NCBI GenBank assembly: GCA_002010215.1
Contig: MTMY01000044.1
Location: 1 to 42,499, forward strand
Direction of reading: 5' to 3'
Length of the DNA stretch: 42,499 nucleotides
Source: Archaeoglobus sp. JdFR-37
GTDB lineage: Archaea > Halobacteriota > Archaeoglobi > Archaeoglobales > Archaeoglobaceae
The position numbers and the translations under genes were made by a program. Below are positions 219 to 32,694 of this stretch, piece by piece (position 1 is the stretch's first letter; each line of letters opens with the position of its first letter). Under the pieces are notes generated by a model. The model saw nothing but the letters and a program-made list of their open reading frames with translations. It searched no databases and had not been told where the DNA came from.

Positions 219-914
219 ATGAATGGTAAAATAGCGTTGATAGTGGTAGTATTGCTTGCTATCGGTGTGCTGGTGCTACCATCCACTGTCTCTCTCTTTG
301 CAGGGCAGCACTATTGGTATGACATAGAATCATCTGGCAACCAGATTCCCTGCCAGAAATGTCATGCTGATGTTTACGAGGAGCTGAACCAGAGCAATTA
401 TCATCTCGGAGCCAATAGTGTTGCTGATGAAGACGACTGCCGGTTCTGCCACCAGGCAAATACAAGTATTACATATGCAAGCGGTGATACGCCATATACT
501 GCTGGTGTCGAAGCTCATGCGGCATCAACAATAAGCTGTGCCTATTGCCACCTTGATCCAGGCGTTTCAGGCGCCCCACCGGCAGGTGGCTTTGGCTTGG
601 CGGATCCAACATTCTACGCAAATGACTCTGGAACTTATGCTGCACACTTGGATTTCGTTACATCTGCAGCTACTGATTCTTTGCTTGAGGACTCCAACGA
701 AGCATGCATTGCGTGTCATACACATGTGGCTGTGAAAATTAACTTTACTCACTATAAGGCAATGGAGTTTGACGTGAACTGGGATACTCTACTTAGCCAG
801 TATGCAACTAGCAACTACAGCATAAACACCTCAACACAGGTGGTAAACACCATATGGGGTAACCAGAGTGGTTCTGGTTGGACAAGCTATCCTGGTAGCG
901 CTAACTGGCCATAA
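219..914 (+). CDS. Secreted tetraheme c-type cytochrome; candidate major extracellular cytochrome nanowire (ECN) subunit
   Basis: Signal peptide; CQKCH, CRFCH, CAYCH, CIACH; extra His in GQH, YH, AHAA and AAH; 7 N-x-S/T sequons; no C-terminal anchor. Confidence 0.85.
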   Translation: MNGKIALIVVVLLAIGVLVLPSTVSLFAGQHYWYDIESSGNQIPCQKCHADVYEELNQSNYHLGANSVADEDDCRFCHQANTSITYASGDTPYTAGVEAHAASTISCAYCHLDPGVSGAPPAGGFGLADPTFYANDSGTYAAHLDFVTSAATDSLLEDSNEACIACHTHVAVKINFTHYKAMEFDVNWDTLLSQYATSNYSINTSTQVVNTIWGNQSGSGWTSYPGSANWP

Positions 915-922
915 GGGCAAAA

Positions 923-938
923 TTTTCTTTTTATTTTT
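923..938 (+). terminator. Oligo-T archaeal terminator after the first cytochrome gene
   Basis: TTTTCTTTTTATTTTT just after the stop codon. Confidence 0.55.
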
Positions 939-1275
939 ATAAAAATTTAACTAAAACAGCTTGATAGGTATGTGTTTCATGTGGGCGTTAGATGAATATT
1001 TGAGATGTTCAAAAGTGGCAAAGAAGCTTAATAGTTTCAATTTTAGACTGCCTGAAATGTCTCACTCGAGAGAAAGAGTTACTCCCCAACTATATTAACA
1101 ACTTCATGGATTCTTCTACTGTTCATCATTAAATAAATTATTAAACATAAATTCTGAACCTCTGGGTTGGGCGAAGAACAAATAACTCGCCAGAAATTTT
1201 GGATAAGAATGCTGTGGGAATGTAAAATGAGACCTCGAAAGATTTTTCTTCTCTGAATAACAACTATATATAATC

Positions 1276-1923
1276 ATGGCCATAGAAAAAGGATTGCTGG
1301 CTCTCATCATTACTGCAGCCATTGGTGTTCTCATACTCCCGACCACAGTATCCATCTTTAGCGGGCAGCATATCTGGTATGATGTCGAATCCCTCTATGG
1401 TGAAAAATGCCTGAAATGTCACGCCGATATTTATGACGAGCTGGTTGTGAGCAGTTATCATGACGGTATAGATGGGGTTTCTGGTTTTGGCGGAAGGGAA
1501 TGTTATGTCTGTCACAGGGCTAATGAGTCAATCACTTATGCCAACGGCTCATCCAACACTCCTGGTGAGGAGGCGCACGCAGCCTCTTCCATAGCCTGTG
1601 CCTACTGCCACTTTAATTCCTCAAACCGCTATAATGCACCTATTGCTGGCGGTTTTGGGCTTTCTGATCTAGCCACTGACATCGGCCTCAACTCAACCCA
1701 CTTCGAAATATTGTCTGGCACTTCATTCTCCAGCTCAATATATCCTGATGAATCTGAAGGCTGTGTAATTTGCCATACGCCAGTACAGGTTAAAATCAAC
1801 TTCACCACTTACGATTCCTACAGCCTAGTGGTGAATAACAGTATAGCCGGAAGCACGAGCCAGTGGGTCGTGGAGTCAATTTCGCCCGGTTCATGGATAA
1901 ACTACACGGAATATAAGAAATAG
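1276..1923 (+). CDS. Secreted tetraheme c-type cytochrome, paralogue of 219-914
   Basis: Signal peptide ending PTTVSIFSGQH; CLKCH, CYVCH, CAYCH, CVICH; shares the EAHAAS..CAYCH, AGGFGL and VKINFT blocks. Confidence 0.85.
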   Translation: MAIEKGLLALIITAAIGVLILPTTVSIFSGQHIWYDVESLYGEKCLKCHADIYDELVVSSYHDGIDGVSGFGGRECYVCHRANESITYANGSSNTPGEEAHAASSIACAYCHFNSSNRYNAPIAGGFGLSDLATDIGLNSTHFEILSGTSFSSSIYPDESEGCVICHTPVQVKINFTTYDSYSLVVNNSIAGSTSQWVVESISPGSWINYTEYKK

Positions 1924-1953
1924 TTTTTTAAGTTTTCAGGATAAAAGATATCC

Positions 1954-3309
1954 ATGAGGTGGATGTTTGCTGTAATTGTTATCATTTCGCTATCACTTAT
2001 CGCTTTATTTCCTAGTACTTTCTCAGTCCTCCAAAACACCCACACAGTCTCAAACATCTCATCTCCCTCCAACGACATACCATGCGCCTCTTGCCACTCA
2101 AAAATCGCTGCCGAGCTGAACAACTCAGTTTACCACACCTCCCTCAGCTGCGAAGATTGCCACAGAAACCCCTACCTCGGCCAAACTGTTGCCTATGACA
2201 ACGGAAGCATAAAGCCAGGGGAAGAAGCCCACGCAGCCGTAAAGCCGAGATGTTTAGACTGTCACTCAAAGACAACCATAACTCTTGCCAATGGAAGCGT
2301 TGTTGCAATAGCAAAAGCAGATGCTTTCGGCGATGCAAGCTATGGCAGCGATTATTCTGCTCATAAGAAGTTCGTGCAAGATGCTCTGAATTTTAATATC
2401 GGCGTTGCAGAGAATGAGGCGTGTTTGAGTTGTCATACTGAGTTCAGTGTGGGCATAGAATTCAGGTATTTCTGGAACATCAGCTACACAAAAAGTGGTA
2501 GTAGCTGGGTGCTACAGAATTTTAACGTAAATGGTACTAGAACCTACATTAAAGTACTCACTAGAACGGGTGCGAAGCACCAGTGGATTAATACTACCCG
2601 AATAAATTGTGTGAGTTGCCATAAAAATATCTATGATGCCCTAGTCAATGGTACACCTCAGTCCCCGTACTACGCTTACACACACTCTCCCATCGAGATA
2701 GATTCAGCAGATTACGGAGGAAATACCTACGGAAACTGGGTAAACCCCAAAGACCACGACTGGCCGCTTAACAATTATTGGGGGAATCCGAGATATCACT
2801 ACATTGAATCAAACAGAGCTATATGGGTGAACTCCACGTACTGCATCAAATGTCACAATGCAGCAAAATATGCGAATCAGAACCCCTCAGACAGTTTAAC
2901 CTACGACCTCATCAATGTCACGTCTGACACTAACTCAACACTGGTACATGCAGCAGAGTCTGTTAGGTGCATCACCTGCCATGGTTACGGAAAAACGAAG
3001 GATCCTTACGATGTAATTGCACCGAGTGGTAGATGGGGGAATGAGATAGGGCACAGAAATTTCATGAATCAGACTGAAAGTTATGCCAGAACGTTTAATG
3101 GCGATATGTGCATGGGTTGCCATGAAGCGGCTGGACATAATGTAGATGACGGAGCATACGAGAGTGGGAGTAATATGTATTGCAACAGCTGCCATAGTTA
3201 TGGAGGATATGCTAGGTGCGGCGCCTGTCATTCTGACAGTTACAACTACAATATAGATGTGATCATAGAATCTGAACCGTCTGGGAATATCACACACAAT
3301 ACATACTGA
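1954..3309 (+). CDS. Secreted decaheme c-type cytochrome (two tandem tetraheme units plus two C-terminal hemes)
   Basis: 10 CxxCH: CASCH, CEDCH, CLDCH, CLSCH, CVSCH, CIKCH, CITCH, CMGCH, CNSCH, CGACH; signal peptide; HAA motif present twice; about 13 sequons. Confidence 0.85.
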   Translation: MRWMFAVIVIISLSLIALFPSTFSVLQNTHTVSNISSPSNDIPCASCHSKIAAELNNSVYHTSLSCEDCHRNPYLGQTVAYDNGSIKPGEEAHAAVKPRCLDCHSKTTITLANGSVVAIAKADAFGDASYGSDYSAHKKFVQDALNFNIGVAENEACLSCHTEFSVGIEFRYFWNISYTKSGSSWVLQNFNVNGTRTYIKVLTRTGAKHQWINTTRINCVSCHKNIYDALVNGTPQSPYYAYTHSPIEIDSADYGGNTYGNWVNPKDHDWPLNNYWGNPRYHYIESNRAIWVNSTYCIKCHNAAKYANQNPSDSLTYDLINVTSDTNSTLVHAAESVRCITCHGYGKTKDPYDVIAPSGRWGNEIGHRNFMNQTESYARTFNGDMCMGCHEAAGHNVDDGAYESGSNMYCNSCHSYGGYARCGACHSDSYNYNIDVIIESEPSGNITHNTY

Positions 3310-3366
3310 ATGGATTAAGTTCATTAGTTATAAATATCATTTCAATAATTTCAATCAAATACTAAT

Positions 3367-3576
3367 TCAAACAAACTTCCAGAACAAAAACCCGAGAAGA
3401 ATCAGAATCACTATAATTGCAGCATCAATAATCCTCACCAACCATTTATTATTCTCATCCACAGAGACTTGATATAAATCCTCAAAGTTCTCATTTCTCA
3501 CCCACTCCATATCCATTTCCAATTCATCATCCTCAATAACAGCTCGAAGCAAATCGTTTTCAACCACTTCAATCAC
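3367..3576 (-). CDS. Small acidic protein with a C-terminal transmembrane helix
   Basis: Overlaps the stop of the MinD-like gene; acidic N-terminus, hydrophobic C-terminus. Confidence 0.6.
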   Translation of the reverse strand: MIEVVENDLLRAVIEDDELEMDMEWVRNENFEDLYQVSVDENNKWLVRIIDAAIIVILILLGFLFWKFV

Positions 3577-4297
3577 CCTTCAACCTCGCCCATAATTTTC
3601 CGTAAGGCTTTATTCTCCTGTTTTGTCCTGTTATATTCAGCATGGTATTCACAAGGTCTTTAGTGATTCCTGAGTTTGGATACAGTACTACAAAGGGTTT
3701 TCCAATCTCCCACGACTTCGCTACATATTTCGACTCTCTTATTAGCCCAACAATCCTGCCCAGCATTGTCTCCGTCACTTTGAATAACTCTTTCTCTCCA
3801 GCGTATCTATTCAGTATTACTCCCCCTCCCTTAACTCCCAGCTCTTCACCTATCTTCTTAACCTTTTGGGCAGATACCAGCGAAGCCTTTTCGGGATTTG
3901 TAATCAAAAAGAGGATGTCAGCAGACTCCATGGGTATGCTCGCCATTTTGCTCAGCCCTGCAGAAAAGTCTATCAATATTCTGTCATAATCCTTTTTCAA
4001 TTCGTCTATAACCTCAGATAATCTATCAATCTTCAGATTTGGGGCAGGAGAGGCTGGCATGACGTGGAGATTGGTTGAAACGCTATATATCGCCATTTCC
4101 ACATCCACGTTTCCTGTCAGCACGTCAGAGAGGGTTGTAGCAGTTCTCAAACCAAAAGCAGCGTGCAAATTCGGAAGAAAGACATCTGCATCTACTACTA
4201 TTACTTTCATCCATTTGGACATGAGTATAGCAAGATTTGCGACAATTGTAGTCTTTCCAACCCCTCCTTTGCCAGAGGCAAACCCAATTACCCTCAT
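3569..4297 (-). CDS. MinD/ParA-family P-loop ATPase
   Basis: Deviant Walker A SGKGGVGKTT, VDAD, ILIDFSAGL; C-terminal amphipathic PYGKLWARLK. Confidence 0.85.
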   Translation of the reverse strand: MRVIGFASGKGGVGKTTIVANLAILMSKWMKVIVVDADVFLPNLHAAFGLRTATTLSDVLTGNVDVEMAIYSVSTNLHVMPASPAPNLKIDRLSEVIDELKKDYDRILIDFSAGLSKMASIPMESADILFLITNPEKASLVSAQKVKKIGEELGVKGGGVILNRYAGEKELFKVTETMLGRIVGLIRESKYVAKSWEIGKPFVVLYPNSGITKDLVNTMLNITGQNRRIKPYGKLWARLKGD

Positions 4298-4944
4298 GCT
4301 CCAAAAATCAGTTTAATTAAGCTGATTATGAGTTCGCTGATGCTGGGAAATACCTTTTCAACCTTTGGTTGCGGAGTTTTTATTACTTTAACACCCTCAA
4401 CCTCCTTAATTTCTGGAATATAGTCTTTTATGTTTTCTGAATGGCACGAAACACAAATCTCATCCAGAACTTTCCCATGCACTCCATGTACTCCACCTTT
4501 ATGGCAGTCGGTGCAAAGTCTGGCCTCAGGTAAAGCGACAGCTTCACCATGACAGCTACTGCACTCAACTTTTTTGTGAGGAACATGCACTTTAGCACCA
4601 ACGTTTTTCCTTGAATATTCATTTCCCACATGGCATTTTATGCAGATATTTACCCCATGGAGCTTTTTCACAAATTCAGGATTGGATATTTCCACTCCTT
4701 TCGAGTGACATGGTGAGCAATCTAAAAATCTGTTCAGCTGAGATTCAGGAAGTGTGTTTATGTGGCATGGCATGCATATCCTTGCTTTATGCCATTGAGC
4801 CATCATTCCTTGGAATTTGGAGAACTGGGCACTTGTCGGAACTGTGATAAGTATGAGCGCAATAGATAACACGATAAGCACAACTCCAAATTTCAGTCCA
4901 CTTGTTGGTCTTTCATTGCTCTCCGACCCCATCCAAAACCTCAT
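4294..4944 (-). CDS. Hexaheme c-type cytochrome with an N-terminal signal/TM segment and a C-terminal amphipathic tail
   Basis: CMPCH, CSPCH, CIKCH, CSSCH, CTDCH, CVSCH; ATGA overlap with the MinD-like gene. Confidence 0.85.
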   Translation of the reverse strand: MRFWMGSESNERPTSGLKFGVVLIVLSIALILITVPTSAQFSKFQGMMAQWHKARICMPCHINTLPESQLNRFLDCSPCHSKGVEISNPEFVKKLHGVNICIKCHVGNEYSRKNVGAKVHVPHKKVECSSCHGEAVALPEARLCTDCHKGGVHGVHGKVLDEICVSCHSENIKDYIPEIKEVEGVKVIKTPQPKVEKVFPSISELIISLIKLIFGA

Positions 4945-4990
4945 TCATAGCAAAGTATTTATTTCTTTCTTCAATCTAAACTTGGGGGGA

Positions 4991-6853
4991 ATGCACTTGG
5001 GAAAAAACAGAAAAATGCTTGTATTAGCCTCCAGTCTATTTGCTATAATCATTTTTATAACAACACCTGTATCTGCCATTTCTTCTTCCAAATTCCATGT
5101 GGCTTTTGTTGATGAAGTTTACGACTTCGGCAAATACCTACAAAAGACTCCAGAATATGAGAAAGGAGATGTGGTAAAAATATATGCCGCAATTGAGGAC
5201 ATCAACAGGGGCAGAGCGTATGCTGTGGACTTCGTTGCAGTAATCACAGATCCCAATGATTATGTGGTTGCCGGGAAGGTCCTGAGTAAGAGGCATATGG
5301 GATACGAAGACCGCACGTATGTGGTATTCAGTTTCGATATACCGGAAGAATGGGCTTACGGCAAGTATAAAGTGGACATATATGTTTTTGATGTCCTCAA
5401 TTATACCGCAACTTATGAAGAATACCGCTCTCTATACGATGAAATCCTTTACAGTGGAAAATTCGATGTGAAGATTCATTCTGTTCCCAGAGAGGACGCC
5501 GATTACGTGAAGAAAACGGTTTATTTCCACGTGAAAAAGGAAGTTGTCAAACCTGCATCCCTCCTAGTATTCGATTCGCATCTCAAAGCGATGATACTGC
5601 CGAAAGGCATGAACAACACTCTGTTATTAACAGTCCTCAACACGTTAAAAACTCCTCAAAAATTCTATGTAAAACTTTATATCGATGGGGAAAAATTTGC
5701 TGAGAAAAAAGTAGAGCTTCAGTCTGAAAATGCTCGGCAAGTAGAATTTGAGATTCCAGAACTCGAAATAGGCGATCACAGCATAGAAATTACTATTGAT
5801 ACAAAGGGTGTACTCTATTCTGAACTTCTGCCCATTTTCATCCCACCGCTCCTATTCGACAAGCCGATTGAGGTTGGAAGATACGGGGAAGGATACATTG
5901 CGTATCTGCCAAACAATTACGTGCTTGGAAGTGTTGGAATCTCTGAGCTGAAAGACATCAATCCTAAAAAAGCAGTAGAAACATTTGAGAAAGCACAATA
6001 TGATTACAACAGAGATAATGCTGCCAAAATGCTCACAAACGTCTTGGCATATCTCTGGAAACAAAGTAAAGGCAACGGAACCATAGAAATTGCACTTCTG
6101 AAGGGGAGTGATGAGCGGGCTGAGGTCGTTCTTCCTGAACTTCTGAATTACATTACTGATATAAGCAAAGCACCTGTAAAATACGTAGGTGTTAGAGAAT
6201 ATGATGAGTTAGAAGGTGTCGATGTCCTGTTTTACGTAACATCCTCTCCACAACTTGAAGGACTCAAAAGCTACCTCTCAAAGGGTGGCATTGTTATTCT
6301 GGACATCACATCCTACTGGACTGAGTTATCAGATACGTGGCGCAGGGAATTTAACTTGGGTGTGGAAGACGAACTGCTCCATTCTTTCTTTGACCTGAAC
6401 ATTAATAAAACAGTCTCAATTCGTCTCAAAACCGAGCTCAAGCTTCCACCTGAACTGAAATATTCAGATCTTGAAGTAAGTGATTTCATAGTTGATGTAG
6501 GTACGCCTGTGACCATCACGTTTAAAGTTAAAAACGAAGGTGGCGCAGGTAAGGAGAACGTTACAGTTTTCATTAACGATCAGCCAGTCTATGACGTGGA
6601 GATGGAATTCTTTACAGGTGACGAAAAAACTGTGACGTTTGAATACACCCCTGAAAAAGAAGGTTCCTACAAAGTTGTTCTTGATAAAAGCGATATTGGA
6701 AAAGTATTCTTTGCAAAAGCGAAAAAAGTGGAAAAGAACGTCACAAAGACACCCACACCAGAAGCTAAGGAAAGAAAAGGTGGAGAGCTTATTGCAGTGC
6801 TCGCCGCTCTGCTGGCGGTGCTGATAGCATTGAGAATATATTTGAGGAAATGA
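4991..6853 (+). CDS. Large cell-surface protein with CARDB/Ig-like domains and a C-terminal membrane anchor
   Basis: Start reassigned from 4817 to ATG 4991 (TTG 4997 or ATG 5015 also possible) because 4817 overlaps the opposite gene; signal peptide ..TPVSA; CARDB-like GTPVTITFKVKNEGG..YTPEKEGSYKV; TPTP linker, TM helix, basic tail. Confidence 0.7.
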   Translation: MHLGKNRKMLVLASSLFAIIIFITTPVSAISSSKFHVAFVDEVYDFGKYLQKTPEYEKGDVVKIYAAIEDINRGRAYAVDFVAVITDPNDYVVAGKVLSKRHMGYEDRTYVVFSFDIPEEWAYGKYKVDIYVFDVLNYTATYEEYRSLYDEILYSGKFDVKIHSVPREDADYVKKTVYFHVKKEVVKPASLLVFDSHLKAMILPKGMNNTLLLTVLNTLKTPQKFYVKLYIDGEKFAEKKVELQSENARQVEFEIPELEIGDHSIEITIDTKGVLYSELLPIFIPPLLFDKPIEVGRYGEGYIAYLPNNYVLGSVGISELKDINPKKAVETFEKAQYDYNRDNAAKMLTNVLAYLWKQSKGNGTIEIALLKGSDERAEVVLPELLNYITDISKAPVKYVGVREYDELEGVDVLFYVTSSPQLEGLKSYLSKGGIVILDITSYWTELSDTWRREFNLGVEDELLHSFFDLNINKTVSIRLKTELKLPPELKYSDLEVSDFIVDVGTPVTITFKVKNEGGAGKENVTVFINDQPVYDVEMEFFTGDEKTVTFEYTPEKEGSYKVVLDKSDIGKVFFAKAKKVEKNVTKTPTPEAKERKGGELIAVLAALLAVLIALRIYLRK

Positions 6854-7149
6854 TGGTCTCTGAATTTGAAAAACTGGTGCTTGAAGCGATATATACAGGA
6901 AAATTCAGTGTGGAGGAAATATCCAGCTCCACCTCTCTTCCCGAAACAGTGGTTGAGGCTTGTATCAAGAGGCTGGTTGAGAGAGGACTAGTGGACGATT
7001 CTCTAAACATCACTGAAGAAGCACTGCAGTTGATTGGTGCAACGGGAGAATATCTCTGGGAAAAGGATGCTTTTAGGATGGCGATAGATGTGCTTATATT
7101 TTCAGTGGGAGTGCTTCTTCTCCTGTATTTATTAGAGGTGATAATGTGA
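6850..7149 (+). CDS. Winged-helix-like protein with a C-terminal transmembrane helix
   Basis: SVEEISSSTSLPETVVEACIKRLVERGLV is wHTH-like; ATGA-coupled to the upstream gene. Confidence 0.6.
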   Translation: MMVSEFEKLVLEAIYTGKFSVEEISSSTSLPETVVEACIKRLVERGLVDDSLNITEEALQLIGATGEYLWEKDAFRMAIDVLIFSVGVLLLLYLLEVIM

Positions 7150-7583
7150 GGCTTCCTATGAGGTGTTCGTTAATTCTGGTTCTCCTGACATCCGCATTTA
7201 TGGTAGCATGTATTCAAATTCAGGAGACTCAGAAGGTCCCTGTTATTGAAGTGAATTTCAGTCATTATATAATCTCAGGGCAGCACATTGTTAAGATTAA
7301 TTCACTTAAAAAGGTGGAAGTGGAAAGTGACAAGGTGAGGGCAACAACCTCTCCACCATTCCCTGGAATACATATATTTGCCATATATCCTTTAAAGGGT
7401 AAAATCCAGATTTCACCTATCGCCTTTACGAATTTGAATGTGGAAGGTGAAATTACAGTATATATTGGAATGGAAAAGGATAAACTTCCGGAAACAGGAA
7501 CAAATATAACTGTAGTGTTGGAAGTAAGAGATGCCGAGGGTAAGAGGATGGCTGCAGACAGAGGGGTGGTAAAATGGATATGA
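7146..7583 (+). CDS. Putative lipoprotein
   Basis: Hydrophobic signal ending in a lipobox-like MVAC; beta-rich body; overlaps its neighbours. Confidence 0.6.
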   Translation: MRLPMRCSLILVLLTSAFMVACIQIQETQKVPVIEVNFSHYIISGQHIVKINSLKKVEVESDKVRATTSPPFPGIHIFAIYPLKGKIQISPIAFTNLNVEGEITVYIGMEKDKLPETGTNITVVLEVRDAEGKRMAADRGVVKWI

Positions 7584-8467
7584 GCAAATTTACTGGGTTT
7601 ATTAGCATAACATCGCTAGTATTAATAATAGCAGTCCTTTTATCCGTTCCATTTGTTTCACCTGTTTCGGCTGAAGTACCATACTTCCCTATCTCTATAT
7701 ACCCCTCAAATCCCGTGGATGGAGATGTAGTAGAAGTGAGCGTCTCAAACTACAATGATTTAGCAGCAGGTGCAGTATTCGAGTGGTACCACAATGGAAC
7801 TAAGGTCAGAGAAATAGAGAAAACCTTTACAGACACCTTGCTCTCGGATTCATATGTTGTTCAATCGGGTGAGTGGGTAGTTACAGTTTACCTGTATGAC
7901 CGCACCGAGCCTAAACAGCTGATCAATTCGTCAACCATCTCCTTCACCGTTCAACCATCTCCTTCACCAACCCCAACACCCTTTCCAACGCCTACCTCCA
8001 CTCTCACCCCTACTGTTACGCCAACTCCCACTCCCGAATCAACAGTTTCACCTACTACCTCTGGTGGTACCACAGGTGCTGGTGGCGCAGGTGGAGGCGG
8101 ATTTGGTGGGTTTGGTGGAGGTGGAGGCGCTCCTGTAGCCCCACAACCAACATCTACAGCCACACCAACTCCCACACCCACTCCTGCAATTACACCGGCA
8201 ATTACGCCTGCACCATCTGTAACCCAAGAAAAACATGAGAAGACGGGGGTTCAAGAACAGAAGCCGAGTACCCCAGTTCCCAGTGTGAAAGAGACTGAAG
8301 AAGAGAGACCACTGGAAAAACCACCAGTTAACGCCACAGAGAAAAGCATTAATGAGACAGGGGAAACACAGGAATCAACTCCTGAACAGACTTTCAAGAT
8401 ACCTCTTGGAGCTGAAGTTGGGATTCTTGGCCTAATTGTGGCTCTCGTTCTGAGGAAAAGAACATGA
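7574..8467 (+). CDS. Surface protein: Ig-like domain, Pro/Thr stalk, Gly-rich hinge, C-terminal sorting-like anchor
   Basis: Signal ..PVSA; PTPT repeats; GGAGGGGFGGFGGGGG; C-terminal IPLG, TM helix, RKR. Confidence 0.7.
   Translation: MDMSKFTGFISITSLVLIIAVLLSVPFVSPVSAEVPYFPISIYPSNPVDGDVVEVSVSNYNDLAAGAVFEWYHNGTKVREIEKTFTDTLLSDSYVVQSGEWVVTVYLYDRTEPKQLINSSTISFTVQPSPSPTPTPFPTPTSTLTPTVTPTPTPESTVSPTTSGGTTGAGGAGGGGFGGFGGGGGAPVAPQPTSTATPTPTPTPAITPAITPAPSVTQEKHEKTGVQEQKPSTPVPSVKETEEERPLEKPPVNATEKSINETGETQESTPEQTFKIPLGAEVGILGLIVALVLRKRT
7953..8216 (+). repeat. Coding low-complexity repeats (Pro/Thr and Gly-rich)
   Basis: Repeated PTPT, GG and TPAI codons within 7574-8467. Confidence 0.7.
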
Positions 8468-9180
8468 ACCCGATATTTCCTGTTTTATTATTTTTGTTAT
8501 CTTTTATTATTTTTTCATTCCTCTTTCTGGCCCATCTTATGAGAAAAGGGCTCCTCGTAAGTCTAAGACTAAGACTGGAGCTTCTGTCTGCAAGATCAAG
8601 ACTGGCTGCAAAGCTGTCTGATATCCTCAAACCAAAAAAGAAAGAAGTTTCCGTACTCAGAATAGCTCTTGAACTCGGAGTGTTTTTATTGCTGATCTAC
8701 GCTGCCCTCTCATACAAAGTCTTCTGGGTGGCTGTTGTATCCAACAGTATGTATCCAACCTTTGAAAGGGGAGATATGGTTCTCGTTCAGAGCTTGTTTG
8801 TTGATCCAAGCCCTGGCGACATCGTTATGTTCAACAGACCAGATTTGAATTACCCTGTCACCCACAGGGTTCTGAAAGTTAGTGATAGTAGAATTTATAC
8901 TGGTGGCGATGCATCCGGGCCAGACAGCTTTCCGATTTCAAGGAGAGATGTGATAGGTGAGGCAGTTTTAATCTTTGGGAAACCGGTAGTTCTCAAAGGA
9001 GTTGGGAAGTATTTCATACTTGAAGCGACAGAATTGAGGGATATTGGCCCCTTTGGACAGGAGTATCTCTTTTACAAGAGGCTTGTAGAAACATTCAGAC
9101 AGTATGCGATAGCCATTATAATCATCTCAATTTCACTCTACATCTATCTGGAAGTCAAGGGCAAAAAAGTTAGGATTTAG
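8464..9180 (+). CDS. Signal peptidase I (S26, Sec11/SipW type) with an N-terminal membrane extension
   Basis: VVSNSMYPTFERGD (catalytic Ser), GDIVMF, VTHRV (His), TGGD. Confidence 0.88.
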   Translation: MNPIFPVLLFLLSFIIFSFLFLAHLMRKGLLVSLRLRLELLSARSRLAAKLSDILKPKKKEVSVLRIALELGVFLLLIYAALSYKVFWVAVVSNSMYPTFERGDMVLVQSLFVDPSPGDIVMFNRPDLNYPVTHRVLKVSDSRIYTGGDASGPDSFPISRRDVIGEAVLIFGKPVVLKGVGKYFILEATELRDIGPFGQEYLFYKRLVETFRQYAIAIIIISISLYIYLEVKGKKVRI

Positions 9181-9931
9181 GGTTGTGGAAACATATAAAA
9201 TCCTTTAGTAAATCTCTCAGTTTCACAACATCTCCCACCACTATAACTGCTGGAGGCCTCACACCTTCCTGCTCTGCAATATCTGCAATCTCAGCAAGCC
9301 TTCCAATTACAACCTTCTGCCTCTCAGTCGTTCCGTCCTGAATTATGGCTACAGGCGTGTCAGGGTTTTTTCCGTATCTGATTAGCTTCTCGGTATTCTC
9401 CCGAAGCTTTGAGACGCCCATGAGAATGACAATTGTCGCATTAAGCTTCGCCAGGGCTTCCCAGTTAAGCCTTTCGTTTCCCTTCGCCTCCCTCCCAGTT
9501 ATTATCACAAAAGCTGGATCGCAGTTTCGATGAGTGACAGGAATTCCGGCATAAGCTGGAACGGCAATAGCAGATGTTATACCAGGAACCACTTCAAAGC
9601 GTATTCTGTGCTTCGCCAGATACTCTGCCTCCTCACCGCCTCTGCCGAAAACAAAGGGGTCGCCACCCTTTATCCTTACCACTGTCTTTCCTTTCTTTGC
9701 GTGCTCCACCAGCAGTCTGTTTATCTCATCCTGCCTTTTTTTATGCTGCCCTGCTCTCTTGCCAACATCTATTAGTTCAGCTTTTGTCCTCTTCAGCATT
9801 TCCTTCAAGCCATCTCCAATGAGCTCATCGTAGAGAATTACGTCAGCCTCTCTTATTGCCCTCTCTGCCTTTACGGTCAGAAGTTCTGGATCGCCGGGAC
9901 CAGCTCCCACGAGATAAACCTTACCTGACAC
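9170..9931 (-). CDS. cobA: Uroporphyrinogen-III C-methyltransferase
   Basis: VYLVGAGPGDPELLT, RIKGGDPFVFGRGGEE, VPGITSA. Confidence 0.95.
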   Translation of the reverse strand: MSGKVYLVGAGPGDPELLTVKAERAIREADVILYDELIGDGLKEMLKRTKAELIDVGKRAGQHKKRQDEINRLLVEHAKKGKTVVRIKGGDPFVFGRGGEEAEYLAKHRIRFEVVPGITSAIAVPAYAGIPVTHRNCDPAFVIITGREAKGNERLNWEALAKLNATIVILMGVSKLRENTEKLIRYGKNPDTPVAIIQDGTTERQKVVIGRLAEIADIAEQEGVRPPAVIVVGDVVKLRDLLKDFICFHNPKS

Positions 9932-9941
9932 GGCACCACCC

Positions 9942-10838
9942 TTAATCCTTAAATCCTTGAGTCATAACTTTGAGCCTCTCAACAATTCCCGATATCACAT
10001 CATCCTGTTCATCTATACTAAACCTCTCCTCCACCCTCACAGCTATGGCCCCGTCGACGCTGAGTATCTCGCAGAAGGCCTCTATCTTATCGTTGGCAGA
10101 CCTTGCATAAACTCCAGCAGGAACAGCACAGCCTATGCCCAGCTCCCTGATAATCTTTCTCTCAACACTCGCCTCAATCCACGTTTTCTGGTGGTTCATG
10201 AAGCTGACAAGCTCCTCTTCTCCTTCCCTAGTGGCAACAGCAATTATCCCTTGGTTGGCTGATGGGATGAATTCTTCAGGAGGCAATGCAACATAATTTA
10301 CCTCTCTATCAATCCCCAGCCTGATCAACCCAGCCTCAGCTAGAAGAATCGCATCGTAGAGTCCCTCATTCAGCTTCCTTAGTCTCGTATCTACATTTCC
10401 TCTCAGGTTCTCTATGATGAAGTCTCTTCTGTGCCGAATAAGCTGGGCCCTCCTTCTAAGGCTCGAGGTGCCGATTTTCGCTCCAAGCCCCATCTCATCA
10501 GGCCCTCTCCCATCAGCAGTTATGAAGGCATCACAGGGGCTTTCTCTCTCCAGAACCGCTGCTACTACAGTTCCTTCTAACCTCTGGCTGGGGACATCCT
10601 TCAGGCTGTGGACTGCTATGTCAATCTCCCTTCTTGCAAGAGCCTCATCAATAGCCCTCACAAAAGCTCCAATTCCCTTGAACTCATGTAAAGGGCAATC
10701 TTTCATTATGTCTCCCGATGTCTTGATTATCTTCAGCTCCACCTCATAACCCTCTTTCCTAAGCTTATCCACCACTTTCTGTGTCTGAGCCAGAGCGAGC
10801 TTGCTTCCTCTGCTTCCCACTACAACCCTTTCAGGCAT
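9942..10838 (-). CDS. hemC: Porphobilinogen deaminase
   Basis: [36 protein letters not shown]; start moved to ATG 10838 (MPERVVV). Confidence 0.95.
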
Positions 10839-12112
10839 TCTCCAACCGCCTCTATGGTCTTTTCTGCATCCTCTTGAGTATGGGCTGTGCTCACGAAACA
10901 CGTCTCATACTGAGAGGGTGGGAAGAACACACCTCTTTCTAGGAGCTTCCAGAAGAGCTTTATGAAGGCATCCTTATCAAGCTTCAGAGCTTCGCTGTAG
11001 TTTGAAGGCTTATCACCCAGATACAGACAGAACATTGAGGCAATCCACTCGACGTCAGCCTTAATATTGGAATCTGCTATCTGATCAGCCAAACCCCTGC
11101 CTATCGCTTCAGTTAAGCTGGCGAGAGCAGGATAAACGTTATTCTCCTTTAGGAATTTGACGGTAGCATAACCCGCTGACAGACTCAAAGGATTGCCGCT
11201 GAATGTTCCCGCATGATAAACACTACCGGCTGGAGCCAGATTCTCCATTATCTCCCTCTTCCCGCCAACGATGCCTATTGGTAATCCGCCTCCAGCAATT
11301 TTTCCAAGGGTTGTAAGGTCTGCTTCAACACCGTAATACTCTTGGGCTCCGCCCAGCGAAAGCCTGAAACCGGTTATGACCTCGTCGAATATTAGAACCA
11401 CATCGTTTTCCTCTGTTATCTTTCTGACCTCTTTAAGGTAGCCCTCCTCTGGCAGTATCAGGCTGGAATTACCCATCACTGGTTCGAGGATTAGAGTCGC
11501 AACCTCCTCCCGATTCTTTTCTAAGACCTCTGAAAGAGCTTCAATATCGTTATATGGAACCTGAAGGGTGTTCTTTACGAAGTCTGCAGGGATGCCGGCA
11601 GAGTTGGGAATCCCATGGGTCGTAGCACCACTCCCTGCCTTAACCAGCACTGCATCATGGGCTCCATGGAAGCTGCCCTCAACCTTCACAATTTTGTCCC
11701 TACCGGTAAATCCTCTAGCGAGTCTAAGGGCCGTCATTGTTGCCTCGCTACCAGTATTGGCGAACCTGACCATGTTTATGCTGCTGAAGATGGATGTTAT
11801 GAGCCTCGCAAACTCAATTTCTAGTTCAATAGGCGTGCCGTAAATCCAGCCCTTTTCGATGGACCCCTCTATTGCTTTTTTCACAGCATCGTTACCATGT
11901 CCCAGAATAAGGGGACCATAGGCCATGCAGTAATCTATATACTCATTTCCGTCCACATCAACAATTTTCGAGCCTCTTGCATGGGATGTGTAGAAGGGAA
12001 AGGGTTTTATTGCCCTTACAGGACTGCTCACACCTCCCGGCATTAGACTAACAGCCTCTTCATAAAGCCTTCTTGAGTTATTCCACCTTGATTGATTCAA
12101 TTCTTCCTGCAT
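10820..12112 (-). CDS. hemL: Glutamate-1-semialdehyde 2,1-aminomutase
   Basis: [37 protein letters not shown]. Confidence 0.95.
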
Positions 12113-13104
12113 CAAATTCCCCCCGCTTCACCCGTTTCACTCAGCATTTCGGCAATCTCCTTTGCATGGTAGGTGAGGATTAAGTCTGCTCCTGCCCTTT
12201 TAATTGCAACAAGTATTTCGTAGGCTATCTGCTTTCCATCCAGCCACCCCATCTTTTCCGCAGCTTTGACCATGCTATATTCCCCGCTGACGTTATAGGC
12301 TGCTGTAGGCATCCTGAATTTCTCCTTTACCCTCCAAATAATGTCAAGATATGCAAGGGCAGGCTTGACCATAATTATGTCTGCTCCCTCCCGAATGTCT
12401 AACTCAACTTCTCTAAGCGCTTCGCTGCCGTTATGTATGTCCATCTGATAACTCCTCCTATCTCCAAAGGAATAACCGCTCTCTGCAGCCTCTCTGAAGG
12501 GTGAGTAAAAAGAAGAGGCGTATTTTGCTGCATAGCTCATGATTGCTATGTCTGTAAACCCTTCAGCGTCCAGAGCACTTCGTATAGCCTGAACCATCCC
12601 ATCCATCATGCCTGAAGGGGCAACTATGTCTGCACCAGCCTCCGCATGACTTACAGCGATTTTGCCCAGAACTGGCAGGGTTTCATCGTTCAGAATCTGC
12701 TGATCCTTCACTATCCCGCAGTGGCCGTGGGTGGTGTATTCGCACATGCACACATCTGTAATTACAACAGCATCGCTGTGCTGCTTCTTTATCTCTCTCA
12801 CAGCCCTCTGAACAACTCCATCCTTATCGTAAGCTGATGAGGCAACTTCATCTTTATGGGAAGGTATGCCGAAGAGGATGAAGGCTTTCAGGCCAAGTTC
12901 CATGGCCTTCCCCACCTCATTGGCAACAGCAGCAATGGGGAGTCTGGAATAGCCGGGCATTGAAGCAATTTCCATTGGCTTCGAAATGTTTTCATCCACA
13001 AAAATTGGCATTATCAGATCTTCAACCTCAAGTTTTGCTTCTCTGAACAGGGGCCTTAAGCTGTCTTTCCGCAGCCTCCTCATTCTCAAAATCGGAAATT
13101 TCAA
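12112..13104 (-). CDS. hemB: Porphobilinogen synthase (Zn-type)
   Basis: [34 protein letters not shown]; probable TTG start at 13104 after GGAGGTG. Confidence 0.95.
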
Positions 13105-14341
13105 AATCTTCACCTCCAAAAAGGTAATGAACTGCTTCGATAACCTCTGACCTGCCGTTTCTTGCAGCGTCTCTCAGCCTCACGGTTGGGGACCTGAGAA
13201 ACTTCTTGATGAGGGAGTTGGCAAAGCTCTCAAGCAGTGGTAGTGATGATTCGTCCACGTCATATTTCGCTTTTAATTTGTTGTAAAGTTCAATTACCTC
13301 CTCTTTCTTCACAACTTCAGCCCGGGCATAGAGAAGATGAATTGCTGAATCAGCCTTAATATCCTTTAATTTCATTTTGAGGTGTTCCAACTCCTCGGCA
13401 ATTATCTTTTCAGCCTTTTTCGCCTCTTTCAACCTTTTTCTCAGGTTTTCCTGACTTATGGCCCTGAGATCATCAATGGTGTATAGCGTAACTCCTTCAA
13501 CTTGGGCGACACTCTCCTCAACATCTCTGGGTAGAGCTATGTCGATTATGAGGAGAGGCCCGTTCTTCACTTTCATAACCCTCTCAACAACATCTCTGGT
13601 GATTATATAGTGGGGAGCAGAGGTGGCGGATATGACCACATCGCATGAGACCATGTAGCGTTCTAAGTTGTCGTATCTAACGGCTCTCCCTCCAACCTCT
13701 TCAGCCAGTTTGACGGCTCTGTGGAAGGTTCTATTTGCTACAAAGACTGCTTTCGTCTCTTTGTGAGCTATAGCCCTGGCAACCAGACTTCCCATCTCTC
13801 CAGCTCCGATGATGAGGACCTCTTTTTCGTGAAGAGAGCCAAGAGTTTTCTCTGCCAGCTCCACCGCAGCAGAACCTATGGACACCGACCCCTTATTGAT
13901 TTTTGTCTGATTTCTTACCTTCTTACCCACCTGTATTGCTTTCACAAAAACAACGTCAAGAATTTCCCCGATACCACCATACTCCTTGCTCAGATTGTAG
14001 AAGTACTTTACCTGCCCGAGGATCTGGTCTTCTCCAACCATCATGGATTCAAGGCCAGATGCAACCCTCAAAATGTGCTCTAGGCACTTTTCATCCTTAT
14101 GTATTTCAATGATCCTCTCAGATACCCCCATACGCATGGCAAAATTACGCAGGGTTTTTTCAGTCTCCGTCCCCACTACATAAACCTCAACCCGATTGCA
14201 TGTCATGAGGACGGCGCATTCCTTTATGTTAGGTATTGAAAGAATTCTCTCGATCAGACTCCTGTAATCTCCATGCCATGCTCTCTGGATCTCGTTTATG
14301 GAAGCTTTTTTGTGAGAAATGACTAGGTTAGCAATCTCCAT
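13028..14341 (-). CDS. hemA: Glutamyl-tRNA reductase
   Basis: [36 protein letters not shown]. Confidence 0.95.
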
Positions 14342-16551: not shown

Positions 16552-17538
16552 TTGATGGAATTCAATCCCAGAAAGCTGCCCACCGTGCTGTACGCAGATG
16601 AACTTATTGACAAAGCTTTCAGAAGAGCATCAAAGGTATCAGGCAGAAATCAGAAAGAGAAGGCAATAAACAAGCTATCAACCATAAGCAATGTCCTGTC
16701 TAACTATTTCCAAAGAATAATCTCATCTCATCCCTCCTACGATAACCTCCCGGACTTCTACAGAGAGATGGTGGATGTGGTTGTGGGCATTAGAAGGCTC
16801 AAGAAGTCTCTTGCAGCATTAAAATGGGCAGATGAGATGACTCAGAAGCTGATAAGCAGATACATGAGAAAACTGAAGGGGACAAGAAATCCAGATCAGG
16901 TTCTGAAGGAAGCTTACGGCAGGATTGCTTCAGTTATTGAGCAAATTGACGATGAGCTGAGATTTCTCAACAAAGCAAAGCAGAAGATGAGGGAGATACC
17001 AACCCTCAGAGATATGCCCACAGTTGTTGTTGCCGGCTACCCCAACGTTGGAAAATCCAGCTTTGTGGCTACTGTCAGCAGCGTCAAGCCGGAGGTGGCA
17101 AGTTACCCTTTCACAACCAAGGCGATATATGTGGGCTACGCTGAAATGGGAGGGAGAAAAGTTCAGTTCATAGATACGCCCGGACTTCTGGACAGGCCAC
17201 TATCAAAGAGAAATGCCATAGAAAGGCGGGCAATCCTCTGCCTGAGATACGCCGCCAACTGCATACTTTTCATAGCCGATCCAACTGAAACGTGCGGTTA
17301 TCCTTTCAAAAAACAGAAGAGACTGCTGGGCGAGATAAAGAGAACCTTCGACATTCCGGTTATCGTTGCCTACAGCAAGGCTGACCTACACAACCTGAGA
17401 GATAATCCGGCCTTCTCTGCTGTCACGGGTGAGGGGATAGATGAAGTTTTATCGTTAATAGAGAAAGTTTTAGAAGATGTTCTGGATAAGGAGGCCCAAG
17501 AAGTAGCCAATGACAGCACCGCCGTTCAGGAAGGGTAA
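16552..17538 (+). CDS. NOG1-family GTP-binding protein
   Basis: GYPNVGKSS, YPFTTK, DTPGLLDRP, SKAD. Confidence 0.92.
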   Translation: MMEFNPRKLPTVLYADELIDKAFRRASKVSGRNQKEKAINKLSTISNVLSNYFQRIISSHPSYDNLPDFYREMVDVVVGIRRLKKSLAALKWADEMTQKLISRYMRKLKGTRNPDQVLKEAYGRIASVIEQIDDELRFLNKAKQKMREIPTLRDMPTVVVAGYPNVGKSSFVATVSSVKPEVASYPFTTKAIYVGYAEMGGRKVQFIDTPGLLDRPLSKRNAIERRAILCLRYAANCILFIADPTETCGYPFKKQKRLLGEIKRTFDIPVIVAYSKADLHNLRDNPAFSAVTGEGIDEVLSLIEKVLEDVLDKEAQEVANDSTAVQEG

Positions 17539-18285
17539 ACCCGGATGAGCCCCTTCTCTCTTCTCCATATATTTCATCAGGACGTAAAGCCCTGCAAGTG
17601 CTCCAGCCAGTGCGGTGATGGATGGGATGCTGAGCAGAAACACTTTTTCACCGAAGGCAGTTGCTGAAACAACCAGTATGTTTGGCATTACCACATCGCC
17701 AACCCCCATGAAGGTTGCTTTCCCCTTTTCCAGCTTATCAAGCTCCAGACCCTTCAACCTTTTCTCCTTCGGAATTATGAAAAGCATTGGGAGCTTCAGC
17801 TTCACAACGCTGTCTGCCAGATCCACCATGTGGCCCGTTTTGTAGACTGCTATGAAGTCGTAAGCAGCCAGCATCAGGAGCAATACGATGACTGGAAGGG
17901 GCTGGAGGCTTATTCCGAATATTGCGGTTACACCTGCTGCCAGAATCATGGCAGAGATATCTATTGTAATCCAGCTGGGTTTGTGGACAAGCAGCAGTAC
18001 CATTAGGATTGAGATTGGTAGGGAGAGAAGCCCTATGAAGGGGGAAAGTATGTAGTATCCTGACACAACCACCAAGAGAAGTATGATTGCATGGATAATC
18101 TTCTCCCAGACTCTTGAAAGGACGAGCATAACAGCTGTGAAGGCCAGTATGACTCCAAAATAAAGGAGAGAGTTTCCTACGCTTGAAGGATCTTCAAATG
18201 CCCTCATCCCTGCCATTTCGTATTCAGGAACTGCCAGAGTGGCGAGTATAGCATTTATAATGAATAAGGCAAAGATTGCCAGCAT
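17470..18285 (-). CDS. Presenilin-family intramembrane aspartyl protease (PSH)
   Basis: YD, MGVGD (GxGD), PGLPFL; multiple TM helices. Confidence 0.9.
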   Translation of the reverse strand: MLAIFALFIINAILATLAVPEYEMAGMRAFEDPSSVGNSLLYFGVILAFTAVMLVLSRVWEKIIHAIILLLVVVSGYYILSPFIGLLSLPISILMVLLLVHKPSWITIDISAMILAAGVTAIFGISLQPLPVIVLLLMLAAYDFIAVYKTGHMVDLADSVVKLKLPMLFIIPKEKRLKGLELDKLEKGKATFMGVGDVVMPNILVVSATAFGEKVFLLSIPSITALAGALAGLYVLMKYMEKREGAHPGLPFLNGGAVIGYFLGLLIQNIF

Positions 18286-28389: not shown

Positions 28390-29319
28390 CTACAGCTCTG
28401 CTCCGCATACCAGACAGAACTTCGAGTTGTCTGGCAGGAAGTCTGCCCCGCACTTCTGGCACTTCTTCATCAGCGGGCCATACGGATATCGTGGATCCAT
28501 TCCCTGTCCAATCCTGTTCCTTATCTCCCTCATTCTGGACTTCCTCTTCTCTTTGAAGGACCACAGCCCCTCACTTGGCTCAACACTTCCAATGTTCAGG
28601 GAGAACCAGGCCTTGCCGTGCTCCCAGGTGAGGCGCCACACCAAATCTCTCCACCAGTTAAGATGCACTTTGAAGTACCAGAGGCTTGAGGCTGAGAGTT
28701 CAAGCATCCTGTCCAGAACTTCCTTAACCCTCTCATCTAGCTTTTCCAGCGGCACCACATCATTTACTATGCCCCACTCCAGTGCAGTTCTCGCATCGAT
28801 TTCGCTGCTGAGCATAACGATTTCTGCTGCTCTCTTCAGTCCGATATGGAGGGGTAGCCACTGTGACAGCCCACCTATTGACGTCATCCCGACGCGAGGT
28901 CCAGGAGATATGAATCTGGCATTCTCACTAGCTATTGCCAGGTCGCATGCAGTCACGAACTCAAAACCTCCACCGGCCGTAATACCGTTCACTCTGGCAA
29001 TAACAGGCTTTCCGCAGTGCATTATCATGTCAAAGACTCTTCCATAAATTTCTCCCCACTTCCAGAAGTCTGAGGACTTTCTTGTGTACTCTTCAGCATA
29101 CTCGTGGACGTTTCCACCTGTGCAGAAAGCCTTGTCACCAACACCAGAGAGGACGATGAACTGGATGTTATCATCCCACATGGCATCCTCAATGGCAGCC
29201 ACCATCTCTTTAAGGGTCGTAAGGGTGTAAGAATTGTATTCATGGGGCCTGTTTATGGCAATCAGCGCCGTGTGGTCGTACCACTCCTTGTCGTAAACTA
29301 TCTCTTTAAACTCTGCCAT
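28390..29319 (-). CDS. Crotonase-family C-C hydrolase, Oah/BamA-like, with a C-terminal zinc ribbon
   Basis: YNSYT, GVGDKAFCTGGN..EYAE, RVNG..GGG.E, GPRVG; C-terminal CQKC..CLVC. Confidence 0.7.
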   Translation of the reverse strand: MAEFKEIVYDKEWYDHTALIAINRPHEYNSYTLTTLKEMVAAIEDAMWDDNIQFIVLSGVGDKAFCTGGNVHEYAEEYTRKSSDFWKWGEIYGRVFDMIMHCGKPVIARVNGITAGGGFEFVTACDLAIASENARFISPGPRVGMTSIGGLSQWLPLHIGLKRAAEIVMLSSEIDARTALEWGIVNDVVPLEKLDERVKEVLDRMLELSASSLWYFKVHLNWWRDLVWRLTWEHGKAWFSLNIGSVEPSEGLWSFKEKRKSRMREIRNRIGQGMDPRYPYGPLMKKCQKCGADFLPDNSKFCLVCGAEL

Positions 29320-31552: not shown

Positions 31553-31553
31553 T

Positions 31554-32684: not shown

Positions 32685-32694
32685 TTATCACTTC

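Follow-up and report, generated by a model that had tools for sequence, protein, structure and literature searches.

The extracellular cytochrome nanowire (ECN) of Archaeoglobus veneficus, AvECN, was reportedly described by Baquero et al. in Cell in 2023. Two papers identify its subunit as the protein of structure 8E5G (F2KMU8). Here we analyse positions 219 to 9180 of a 42,499-nt stretch of DNA from Archaeoglobus sp. JdFR-37 (contig MTMY01000044.1; hereafter the window), where four multiheme c-type cytochrome genes stand together with genes for a MinD/ParA-family ATPase, a signal peptidase I (SPase I) and several surface or membrane proteins. Sequence comparison shows homology to the solved nanowire subunit for open reading frames (ORFs) A and B and for the N-terminal module of C, and in several archaeal families the accessory genes accompany those for ECN. 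In our assessment the island is probably the locus of an AvECN-type extracellular multiheme cytochrome system together with a conserved accessory set that belongs to it. The locus belongs to a known nanowire family and is not new in kind; its accessory module has been foreshadowed in print in part only. A, B and the N-terminal module of C share with AvECN the same four heme motifs and conserved histidines, but at ∼46–49% identity ECN-A is a distinct protein, and the accessory module, placed beside the cytochrome genes here, lies elsewhere on the chromosome in the AvECN-encoding genome (G007).

Bacillus subtilis has in SipW a dedicated signal peptidase of the archaeal/endoplasmic reticulum (ER) type for a secreted fibre subunit, TasA. 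The island resembles this pair in that a second Ser-His SPase I is encoded with a secreted polymerising substrate, polymerisation being in our case a prediction. However, the island peptidase is not a member of the SipW family (NF046067, 20.7 bits against a cut-off of 190), and its substrate would be a heme protein, whereas TasA is a jelly-roll fibre.

ATPases of the MinD/ParA type are known to place surface machines, as in the case of Haloferax MinD4 (archaella and chemosensory arrays), FlhG and TadZ/CpaE. A deviant Walker A motif, a conserved C-terminal tail and a gene encoded with envelope apparatus are features that the island ATPase has in common with them, but it scores under the minD_arch cut-off, and its partners are small proteins, either tail-anchored or with a winged helix-turn-helix and a transmembrane segment (wHTH-TM), of no described family.

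Archaea have no outer membrane. For bacteria, the parts of two sources available to us report omcE and omcS clusters with beta-barrel and beta-propeller lipoproteins, and OmcZ with serine proteases (10.1101/2025.10.22.684050, PMC13748539). They resemble the island in that the gene for the filament subunit stands with genes for other multiheme cytochromes and for lipoproteins, and in the case of OmcZ with one for a dedicated protease, but the c-type cytochromes are the sole common component: the island has no outer-membrane barrel and no subtilisin-type protease, and carries a MinD ATPase and a CARDB protein instead. The secretion, assembly and cell attachment of cytochrome nanowires is a question that ‘remains unanswered’ in the words of the first of these sources, a 2025 preprint (10.1101/2025.10.22.684050).

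The accessible parts of Chadwick et al. 2022 (PMC9012536) report a signal peptidase beside CcmF2 and a large surface-layer (S-layer) cytochrome in anaerobic methanotrophic archaea (ANME) of groups 2a, 2b and 3, and another in an ANME-1 cytochrome cluster; it is said to be confined to ANME, Ferroglobus and Geoglobus, and is proposed to mature multiheme cytochromes by cutting their signal peptides. Like the island gene, this is an extra SPase I beside multiheme genes of electroactive archaea. The set in which it stands is tied to CcmF2 and the S-layer cytochrome, with ECN, MinD, CARDB and lipoprotein unmentioned in those parts, and includes an ‘8x TMH’ gene, whereas no gene with eight transmembrane helices (TMH) is present in this island; the peptidases themselves are compared by description only. 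The author of an earlier note on this DNA was not aware of such an apparatus having been functionally described, a statement to be narrowed in view of this cytochrome-associated peptidase. In our literature searches on archaeal cytochrome nanowires we found no mention of an ECN tie of this peptidase clade, of a cut-site motif, or of the MinD/wHTH-TM/CARDB/lipoprotein set; the 2023 Cell paper and the 2026 Methanoperedens supplements may bear on this.

Layout of the island

The source genome (G000; 1.97 Mb, 52 contigs, 94.5% complete) contains the window as its entire contig C16. Three plus-strand cytochrome genes (A, B and C) are followed by a minus-strand trio (3367–4944), and the island ends with a divergent plus-strand operon of five genes (4991–9180):

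219..914, plus strand: ECN-A, tetraheme c-type cytochrome, 231 aa (match to 8e5g_A, 4 CxxCH)
1276..1923, plus strand: ECN-B, tetraheme paralogue of ECN-A, 215 aa (match to 8e5g_A, 4 CxxCH)
1954..3309, plus strand: decaheme cytochrome C, 451 aa (10 CxxCH, ECN-like N-terminal module)
3367..3576, minus strand: s69, tail-anchored membrane protein, 69 aa (coupled to MinD, homologue in G001)
3569..4297, minus strand: MinD/ParA-family ATPase, 242 aa (Pfam AAA_31, CbiA, ParA)
4294..4944, minus strand: secreted hexaheme c-type cytochrome, 216 aa (6 CxxCH, predicted signal peptide)
4991..6853, plus strand: CARDB620, surface protein, 620 aa, ORF open from 4817 (Pfam CARDB, AlphaFold2 model)
6850..7149, plus strand: wHTH99, winged helix-turn-helix with C-terminal transmembrane segment, 99 aa (Pfam wHTH-PRTase_assc)
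7146..7583, plus strand: p145, predicted lipoprotein, 145 aa (invariant Cys after signal helix, AlphaFold2 model)
7574..8467, plus strand: p297, surface stalk protein, 297 aa (sequence features)
8464..9180, plus strand: ECN-type SPase I, S26 archaeal/ER-type, 238 aa (sigpep_I_arch, Pfam S24 and S26)

The gene content given in the earlier note was borne out. Our motif counts agree with its four multiheme genes of 4, 4, 10 and 6 CxxCH, 24 in total, and no CxxCH was counted in the seven remaining island ORFs. These four ORFs hold 24 of the 29 CxxCH present in the six frames of the window; at a background of ∼0.06 per 1000 residues, ∼0.07 would be expected in their 1113 residues. The MinD-type ATPase that it named has Pfam AAA_31, CbiA and ParA matches above cut-offs, and the S26 signal peptidase scores 65.3 bits against the NCBIfam model sigpep_I_arch (TIGR02228, cut-off 51.85), with Pfam S24 and S26 also above cut-offs. 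Its five surface or membrane proteins are present as well (the 69-aa tail-anchored protein, a 678-aa ORF, the 99-aa protein with wHTH and transmembrane segment, the 145-aa protein and the Pro/Thr-rich 297-aa protein). As for its view that most genes are translationally coupled, six of the eight same-strand junctions overlap, by 4–10 nt; gaps of 361 nt and 30 nt separate A from B and B from C.

The contig begins at the first base of the window, 218 nt upstream of ORF A, and halves of a further decaheme-like ECN paralogue lie at two other contig ends, so the left side of the island was probably cut by an assembly break at repeated ECN genes. The N- and C-terminal parts of that paralogue are found at the end of contig C45 (locus L005) and at the start of C30 (L004), respectively. 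A CxxCK and a CxxxCH site are present in the C30 part, and a radical-SAM gene comes next; ECN repeats apparently cause breaks in this assembly.

Cytochromes of the AvECN family

Membership of A, B and the N-terminal module of C in the AvECN nanowire family is supported by matches to PDB chain 8e5g_A along the full length of ECN-A (E-value 7.9e-50, residues 2–231 aligned to 3–255) and of ECN-B (1e-26), and over residues 11–196 of decaheme C (7.3e-18). ECN-A and ECN-B are 50% identical to each other, each differs from AvECN at about half of its residues, and ECN-A has 73% identity to its best counterpart in G019, a close relative. In an alignment of 16 family members, the 8E5G sequence included, the four CxxCH motifs and H31, H100 and H143 are invariant and H62 is near-invariant. 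Four CxxCH with four further histidines would be the count needed for four bis-His hemes, and His31 is probably one of the heme ligands.

T23, F27, G29 and Q30 are invariant in the same alignment, as part of a family N-terminus in which a hydrophobic stretch is followed by LP[SNQ]T[VA]SLFAGQH.WY. This motif is near-universal in 52 ECN-like ORFs, is retained in ANME-1, Methanoperedens and G045 homologues, and is shared by ECN-B and by ECN-A, where the signal peptide leads into LPSTVSLFA|GQH, the bar marking the predicted cut. The predicted secretion signal, a hydrophobic N-terminal stretch with a small-residue site, was read from the sequence by eye. Class III (prepilin-type) signal peptides were considered and rejected, the residues preceding the hydrophobic stretch being inconsistent among A, B, C and AvECN. 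N-x-S/T sequons number 7 in A, 7 in B and 13 in C, with none in the hexaheme protein.

The family is multi-copy, the source genome having four matches and G030 as many as 22, and its paralogues are divergent, some having 5, 8, 9, 10 or 11 hemes. Relatives show a recurrent set of a tetraheme protein, a second tetraheme or a pentaheme protein, and a nine- or ten-heme protein of ∼450 aa with an ECN-like N-terminal module. Decaheme C follows this plan, its ECN-like tetraheme module (about residues 11–196) being joined to a six-heme C-terminal extension; its orthologues (392–468 aa) lie downstream of ECN genes in G019, G031, G007, G022, G028, G059 and the ANME-1 locus L100. We regard it as a candidate for the base or the tip of the filament, where it would provide a link to other carriers.

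Co-occurrence and linkage of the accessory genes

Gene content was compared in two sets: the source genome with 60 relatives (61 genomes), and a phylum-wide set of 301 genomes, each at least 90% complete. Among the 61, ECN genes are present in 18 and the peptidase orthologue in 21, all 18 ECN-positive genomes included, with a jump in E-values from 3e-29 to 8e-13. CARDB620 and p145 were each found in 19 genomes, each covering 17 of the 18, and the hexaheme in 20, covering them all. All five genes occur together in 17 genomes and none of the five in 39; four partial cases are either fragmented assemblies or G045, whose ECN-like genes fall under the threshold. G002 lacks all five, which its congeners G019 and G031 both carry.

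Across the phylum, 43 genomes have ECN genes and 41 have the ECN-type peptidase. The two coincide in 39; of the remaining genomes, 4 hold only ECN, 2 only the peptidase and 256 neither, and all six discordant ones are fragmented (180–400 contigs). The peptidase profile is bimodal, with full-length matches in 41 genomes at E ≤3e-47 and core-only matches from 3e-20 on. Families f1, f8, f12, f17, f19, f28, f31 and f33 contain both genes. Profiles of CARDB620 and of the MinD subtype pick the identical 25 of 60 Archaeoglobales genomes, among them all 22 ECN-positive Archaeoglobaceae; the CARDB620 and MinD genes lie side by side in 17 of the 25. In other families, 13 ECN-positive genomes have shorter CARDB-family proteins, made up of the first sandwich domain, a CARDB domain and a transmembrane segment.

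Physical linkage is found as well. In 10 of the 11 peptidase-positive f12 genomes no more than 1 kb separates the peptidase gene from an ECN gene, and the same holds in G183 (f28), in G196 and at loci L065 and L100, the last being an ANME-1-labelled locus that groups with f12 and holds the peptidase, a 5-heme ECN and a 9-heme protein. In Ca. Methanoperedens (L099), a single strand encodes a 5-heme cytochrome, a p145-like lipoprotein, an ECN, the peptidase, an 11-heme ECN-like protein, a 6-TM (six-transmembrane-segment) protein, a CARDB-like protein, MinD and a wHTH-TM protein; hhalign related the p145 and CARDB homologues of this locus to the island proteins with probabilities of 96.3% and 99.9%. 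Short CARDB homologues lie 1.5–4 kb from peptidase or ECN genes in G080, G155, G183 and G233. The earlier note had named a lack of co-occurrence of accessory genes and cytochromes in other genomes as a sign against its idea; what we found is strong co-occurrence at genome level, with adjacency in several distant lineages.

Two further loci touch on these neighbourhoods. A 270-aa multi-TM homologue (E 4e-18) of the 6-TM protein of the Methanoperedens ECN operon is encoded in the source genome away from the island (L149, C27:2437–6120, ORF 1486–2298), beside a secreted beta-propeller-like protein with a C-terminal anchor. In G035 (L060, contig C53, 10317–14544), genes for DUF7287, DUF7288 and a DUF7266-VWA protein stand directly after the module, an arrangement unseen beside the module in the other annotated loci.

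The signal peptidase

Ser95, His134 and Asp149 of the island peptidase, which we take to be the catalytic Ser, His and Asp of an archaeal/ER-type SPase I, are invariant, and D154 near-invariant, in 19 sequences including two paralogues. The genome holds three SPase I genes, the island copy included. This copy has an extra transmembrane segment and linker at the N-terminus and, at the C-terminus, a conserved extension that includes another transmembrane segment; both are missing from the 189-aa housekeeping-type paralogue on contig C18. The SPase I family is present in 60 of the 61 genomes of the near set; all 18 ECN-positive genomes have at least two copies, and ECN-negative Archaeoglobaceae mostly one. 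A tree of 85 SPase I ORFs placed 37 ECN-type sequences on one side of a branch with support of 92/92; the ECN-type label was set beforehand from the E-value gap, and the tree thus speaks for the cohesion of the group and is not an independent discovery of it.

On balance we favour the view that this dedicated peptidase cuts ECN precursors at the predicted site SLFA|GQH. The hexaheme, CARDB620 and p297 carry ordinary AxA-type signal peptides, cleavable by any SPase I, and lack the ECN cut-site motif.

Another specialised SPase I is encoded in the source genome at L046 (C20:26328–29702; ORFs 352–885, 938–1447, 1486–2517 and 2499–3323) together with three small secreted proteins. It has 343 aa and a long C-terminal membrane part, the flanking secreted proteins have similar N-termini, and the whole looks like a separate cluster of the SipW/fibre type. 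A reading of p145, p297 and the island peptidase as a TasA/SipW-like pilus module unrelated to cytochromes was set aside: fold searches with the p145 model gave it no support, and the cluster on the other contig fits better.

The MinD-type ATPase and its partners

By score the island ATPase is not a member of minD_arch (TIGR01969, 157.2 bits, cut-off 201.75) and falls into the wider MinD/ParA P-loop group. The deviant Walker A motif SGKGGVGKTT and D36, D38 and D110 are invariant in 14 orthologues, and the C-terminal tail is conserved. Its subtype is specific to module-carrying genomes (25 of the 301, the set that holds CARDB620). The first impression was of an unconserved MinD, no MinD being present in 20 ECN-centred loci, and it was overturned by the loci around CARDB and peptidase genes.

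The s69 gene overlaps MinD by 8 nt and encodes a protein with an acidic N-terminus and a tail anchor, for which Pfam and NCBIfam gave no match; a homologue stands at the equivalent place in G001. In other genomes this position is held by a protein of 129–220 aa (for example L056:2848–3327 and L058:5294–5956) with an N-terminal motif close to IDVLMDDG, a highly charged linker, a wHTH and a C-terminal transmembrane segment, the partner in G000 and G001 being reduced to the acidic N-terminus and the membrane segment. The MinD-following protein may be a MinD-binding adaptor; a complex prediction for MinD with s69 residues 1–45 scored 0.01, which says nothing for or against binding. The second small protein, wHTH99 (Pfam wHTH-PRTase_assc, 29.1 against a cut-off of 27), is kept between the CARDB and peptidase genes in G001, G007, G034, G017, G008, G035, G023, G038 and G031. 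That MinD positions an envelope assembly we regard as doubtful.

Surface proteins and the hexaheme cytochrome

Homologues of the 678-aa ORF align only from residue ∼45–85, and the true start is for this reason probably at 4991, giving 620 aa. The AlphaFold2 model of CARDB620 (predicted local distance difference test, pLDDT, 83.8) consists of a signal helix, two beta-sandwich domains, an alpha/beta domain, a CARDB domain (Pfam match 3.6e-12), a disordered spacer and a C-terminal transmembrane segment. Foldseek with the full model returned only multi-domain beta-sandwich matches with a TM-score of at most 0.20; VIA-align recognised CARDB and Ig-like domains and a weak likeness, at very large root-mean-square deviation (rmsd), of the central alpha/beta domain to C-terminal domains of GH3, which does not justify an enzymatic reading. 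The ESM Atlas held no match at ≥0.9 and no structure for it. CARDB620 is a candidate scaffold or anchor.

The model of p145 (pLDDT 89) shows one Ig/FnIII-like beta-sandwich behind a signal helix that ends in a Cys. All 10 aligned orthologues keep this Cys, with A or G before it in the manner of a lipobox, and p145 is accordingly a predicted lipoprotein. A fold search for a jelly roll of TasA or bundling pili gave Ig/FnIII-like matches only (best, the N-domain of 4df9_A, Z 9.2, rmsd 3.3, 102 aligned residues). Orthologues of p145 adjoin ECN arrays or the hexaheme. We also considered p145 as a donor of His heme ligands, H40 and H47 being invariant and H76 near-invariant in Archaeoglobales, yet these are lost in the Methanoperedens homologue and the idea was dropped.

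The p297 protein has a signal peptide, a globular domain of ∼110 aa, a long Pro/Thr- and Gly-rich linker and a C-terminal transmembrane anchor. It gave no family match above cut-off in Pfam or NCBIfam, and homologues of its N-terminal domain were found downstream of p145 in G001, G019 and G015 only.

The N-terminus of the hexaheme cytochrome resembles a cleavable signal peptide and not a membrane anchor, and the protein ends in an amphipathic or hydrophobic tail. In other genomes its gene adjoins ECN, p145 or CARDB genes; that of AvECN itself, a 262-aa ORF of G007 matching 8e5g_A end to end, has as neighbours a pentaheme paralogue and the hexaheme. The hexaheme is likely an electron relay beneath the cell surface. 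None of the accessory fold matches obtained with the models indicates an activity. We consider it likely that the hexaheme and the decaheme take part, together with the CARDB protein and p145, in one envelope assembly.

Neighbouring genes in the window

A complete heme-precursor operon (9170–14341, minus strand: a uroporphyrinogen-III methyltransferase-like gene, HemC, HemL, HemB and HemA) converges on the peptidase gene with an 11-nt overlap. Its adjacency is common only to the same-genus genome G001, and we therefore treat it as a neighbour and not as a part of the island. A presenilin-type signal-peptide peptidase (17470–18285, minus strand; Pfam SPP, E 3e-61), 8 kb from the island, is probably a housekeeping enzyme. 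Further on (28390–34356, minus strand), genes for an enoyl-CoA hydratase, a BcrAD/BadFG-type ATPase, two HGD-D dehydratase subunits and an AMP-forming ligase suggest an acyl-CoA dehydratase or aromatic-type pathway, unrelated to the nanowire finding.

Discussion

The conserved set formed by the ECN-clade peptidase, the MinD subtype with its small membrane partners, the CARDB protein, the lipoprotein and the hexaheme could be the biogenesis and anchoring machinery of archaeal cytochrome nanowires, in which the peptidase would license polymerisation by exposing a heme-ligating N-terminus, and MinD, via tail-anchored adaptors, would decide where filaments are mounted on a cell without an outer membrane. 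We put this forward as a tentative scheme that may well not hold in full; its steps are drawn from domain content, topology and gene association. ECN precursors would be exported by Sec and receive heme from a general maturation system encoded elsewhere. The dedicated peptidase would then cut ...LPSTVSLFA|GQH... and free an N-terminus with His31, the probable heme ligand, whereupon the subunit would become competent for polymerisation; its role would resemble that of SipW acting for TasA in Bacillus. The hexaheme and the decaheme, the latter with its ECN module and six further hemes, would relay electrons from the membrane to the base of the filament, which the C-terminally anchored CARDB protein, the lipoprotein p145 and the stalk p297 would hold or organise below the S-layer. 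MinD, tied to the membrane via its small tail-anchored or wHTH-TM partners, would determine the site of the platform, or whether it forms at all. Of these steps, that of the peptidase has the best support, because the genes are adjacent in distant lineages and a conserved motif spans the predicted cut site.

Several observations weigh against this interpretation. Within the ECN family, to our knowledge, polymerisation is known for AvECN itself only. The residues after the predicted cut site may be conserved for heme ligation alone. The models of CARDB620 and p145 give generic beta-sandwich matches only, which makes ‘anchor’ and ‘scaffold’ guesses, and no protein of the MinD subtype rises above the generic level outside Archaeoglobales in the profile search of 301 genomes. 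Related genomes are not independent, and separate gains and losses are far fewer than the co-occurrence counts. Linkage is exceptional in Archaeoglobaceae: an ORF with at least three CxxCH lies in the fetched flanks of 8 of 32 peptidase-orthologue loci and is lacking in 24, against 1 of 47 generic SPase loci with such an ORF. In G007, G030 and G035, a unit of MinD divergent from CARDB, wHTH and peptidase genes sits between housekeeping genes, a PfkB kinase and a Hel308-type helicase; in G007 the unit (at 1.646 Mb) and the AvECN gene (at 0.076 Mb) are ∼1.57 Mb apart. The full arrangement of the island is common only to the same-genus genome G001, the layout in the window being one of several. 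The earlier note's central claim, that the island encodes a filament with a dedicated apparatus, is partly supported: the family membership and the co-occurrence agree with it, but the peptidase loci that lack a flanking multiheme gene and the unlinked genes of G007 speak against a simple island.

If the ECN-family proteins of this genome were monomeric or surface-bound carriers, the island would be a multiheme conduit across the archaeal envelope and no nanowire. The record of polymerisation in AvECN alone speaks for this, as do the sequence differences of A and B from AvECN and the many divergent paralogues per genome with their varied heme numbers; PMC13748539, in its accessible parts, treats the physiological role of ECN filaments as unsettled. 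Yet the homology to the filament subunit is full-length, all heme sites and the four further histidines are kept, and ECN-A is the best match of the AvECN-like proteins in close relatives. We consider the carrier explanation unlikely.

Quite unlikely, in our view, is that the peptidase is a general maturation enzyme for all secreted multiheme cytochromes of electroactive archaea, as in the proposal of Chadwick et al., with no specificity for ECN or for polymerisation. A peptidase associated with multiheme cytochromes and having the same proposed role is already in print, beside CcmF2 with the S-layer cytochrome and in the ANME-1 cluster (PMC9012536, accessible parts), and cytochromes outside the ECN family, the hexaheme among them, are encoded in the island and its relatives too. 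What speaks against a general enzyme is that the cytochrome genes touching the peptidase gene are ECN-family members, and that the cut-site motif of the latter is not found in the hexaheme, CARDB620 or p297.

We rate lowest, as improbable, an independent surface system (another surface protein or appendage) in the MinD–CARDB–wHTH–peptidase unit, which would share only lifestyle and ancestry with ECN archaea and have come to lie beside ECN genes here by local rearrangement: the loci with no multiheme gene in their flanks, the housekeeping neighbours, the distance from AvECN in G007 and the signal peptides of CARDB620, p297 and the hexaheme, open to cleavage by any SPase I, agree with it, but the peptidase coincides with ECN in 39 genomes with all six discordant ones fragmented, abuts ECN genes in 10 of 11 f12 genomes, G183 and L099, and has short CARDB homologues near it or near ECN genes in four genomes, and G002 lacks the whole set that its congeners carry.

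For the AvECN-type system with its accessory set, which we prefer to these alternatives, the analysis yields a short list of candidate genes that track the filament family in Archaeoglobales, in family f12 (with the ANME-1-labelled locus) and in Methanoperedenaceae, lineages relevant to iron reduction at hydrothermal vents and to the anaerobic oxidation of methane. It also yields a specific prediction, that the dedicated peptidase cleaves at ...SLFA|GQH... If the module is indeed an assembly system, it would amount to a minimal parts list for making such wires in a chosen host.

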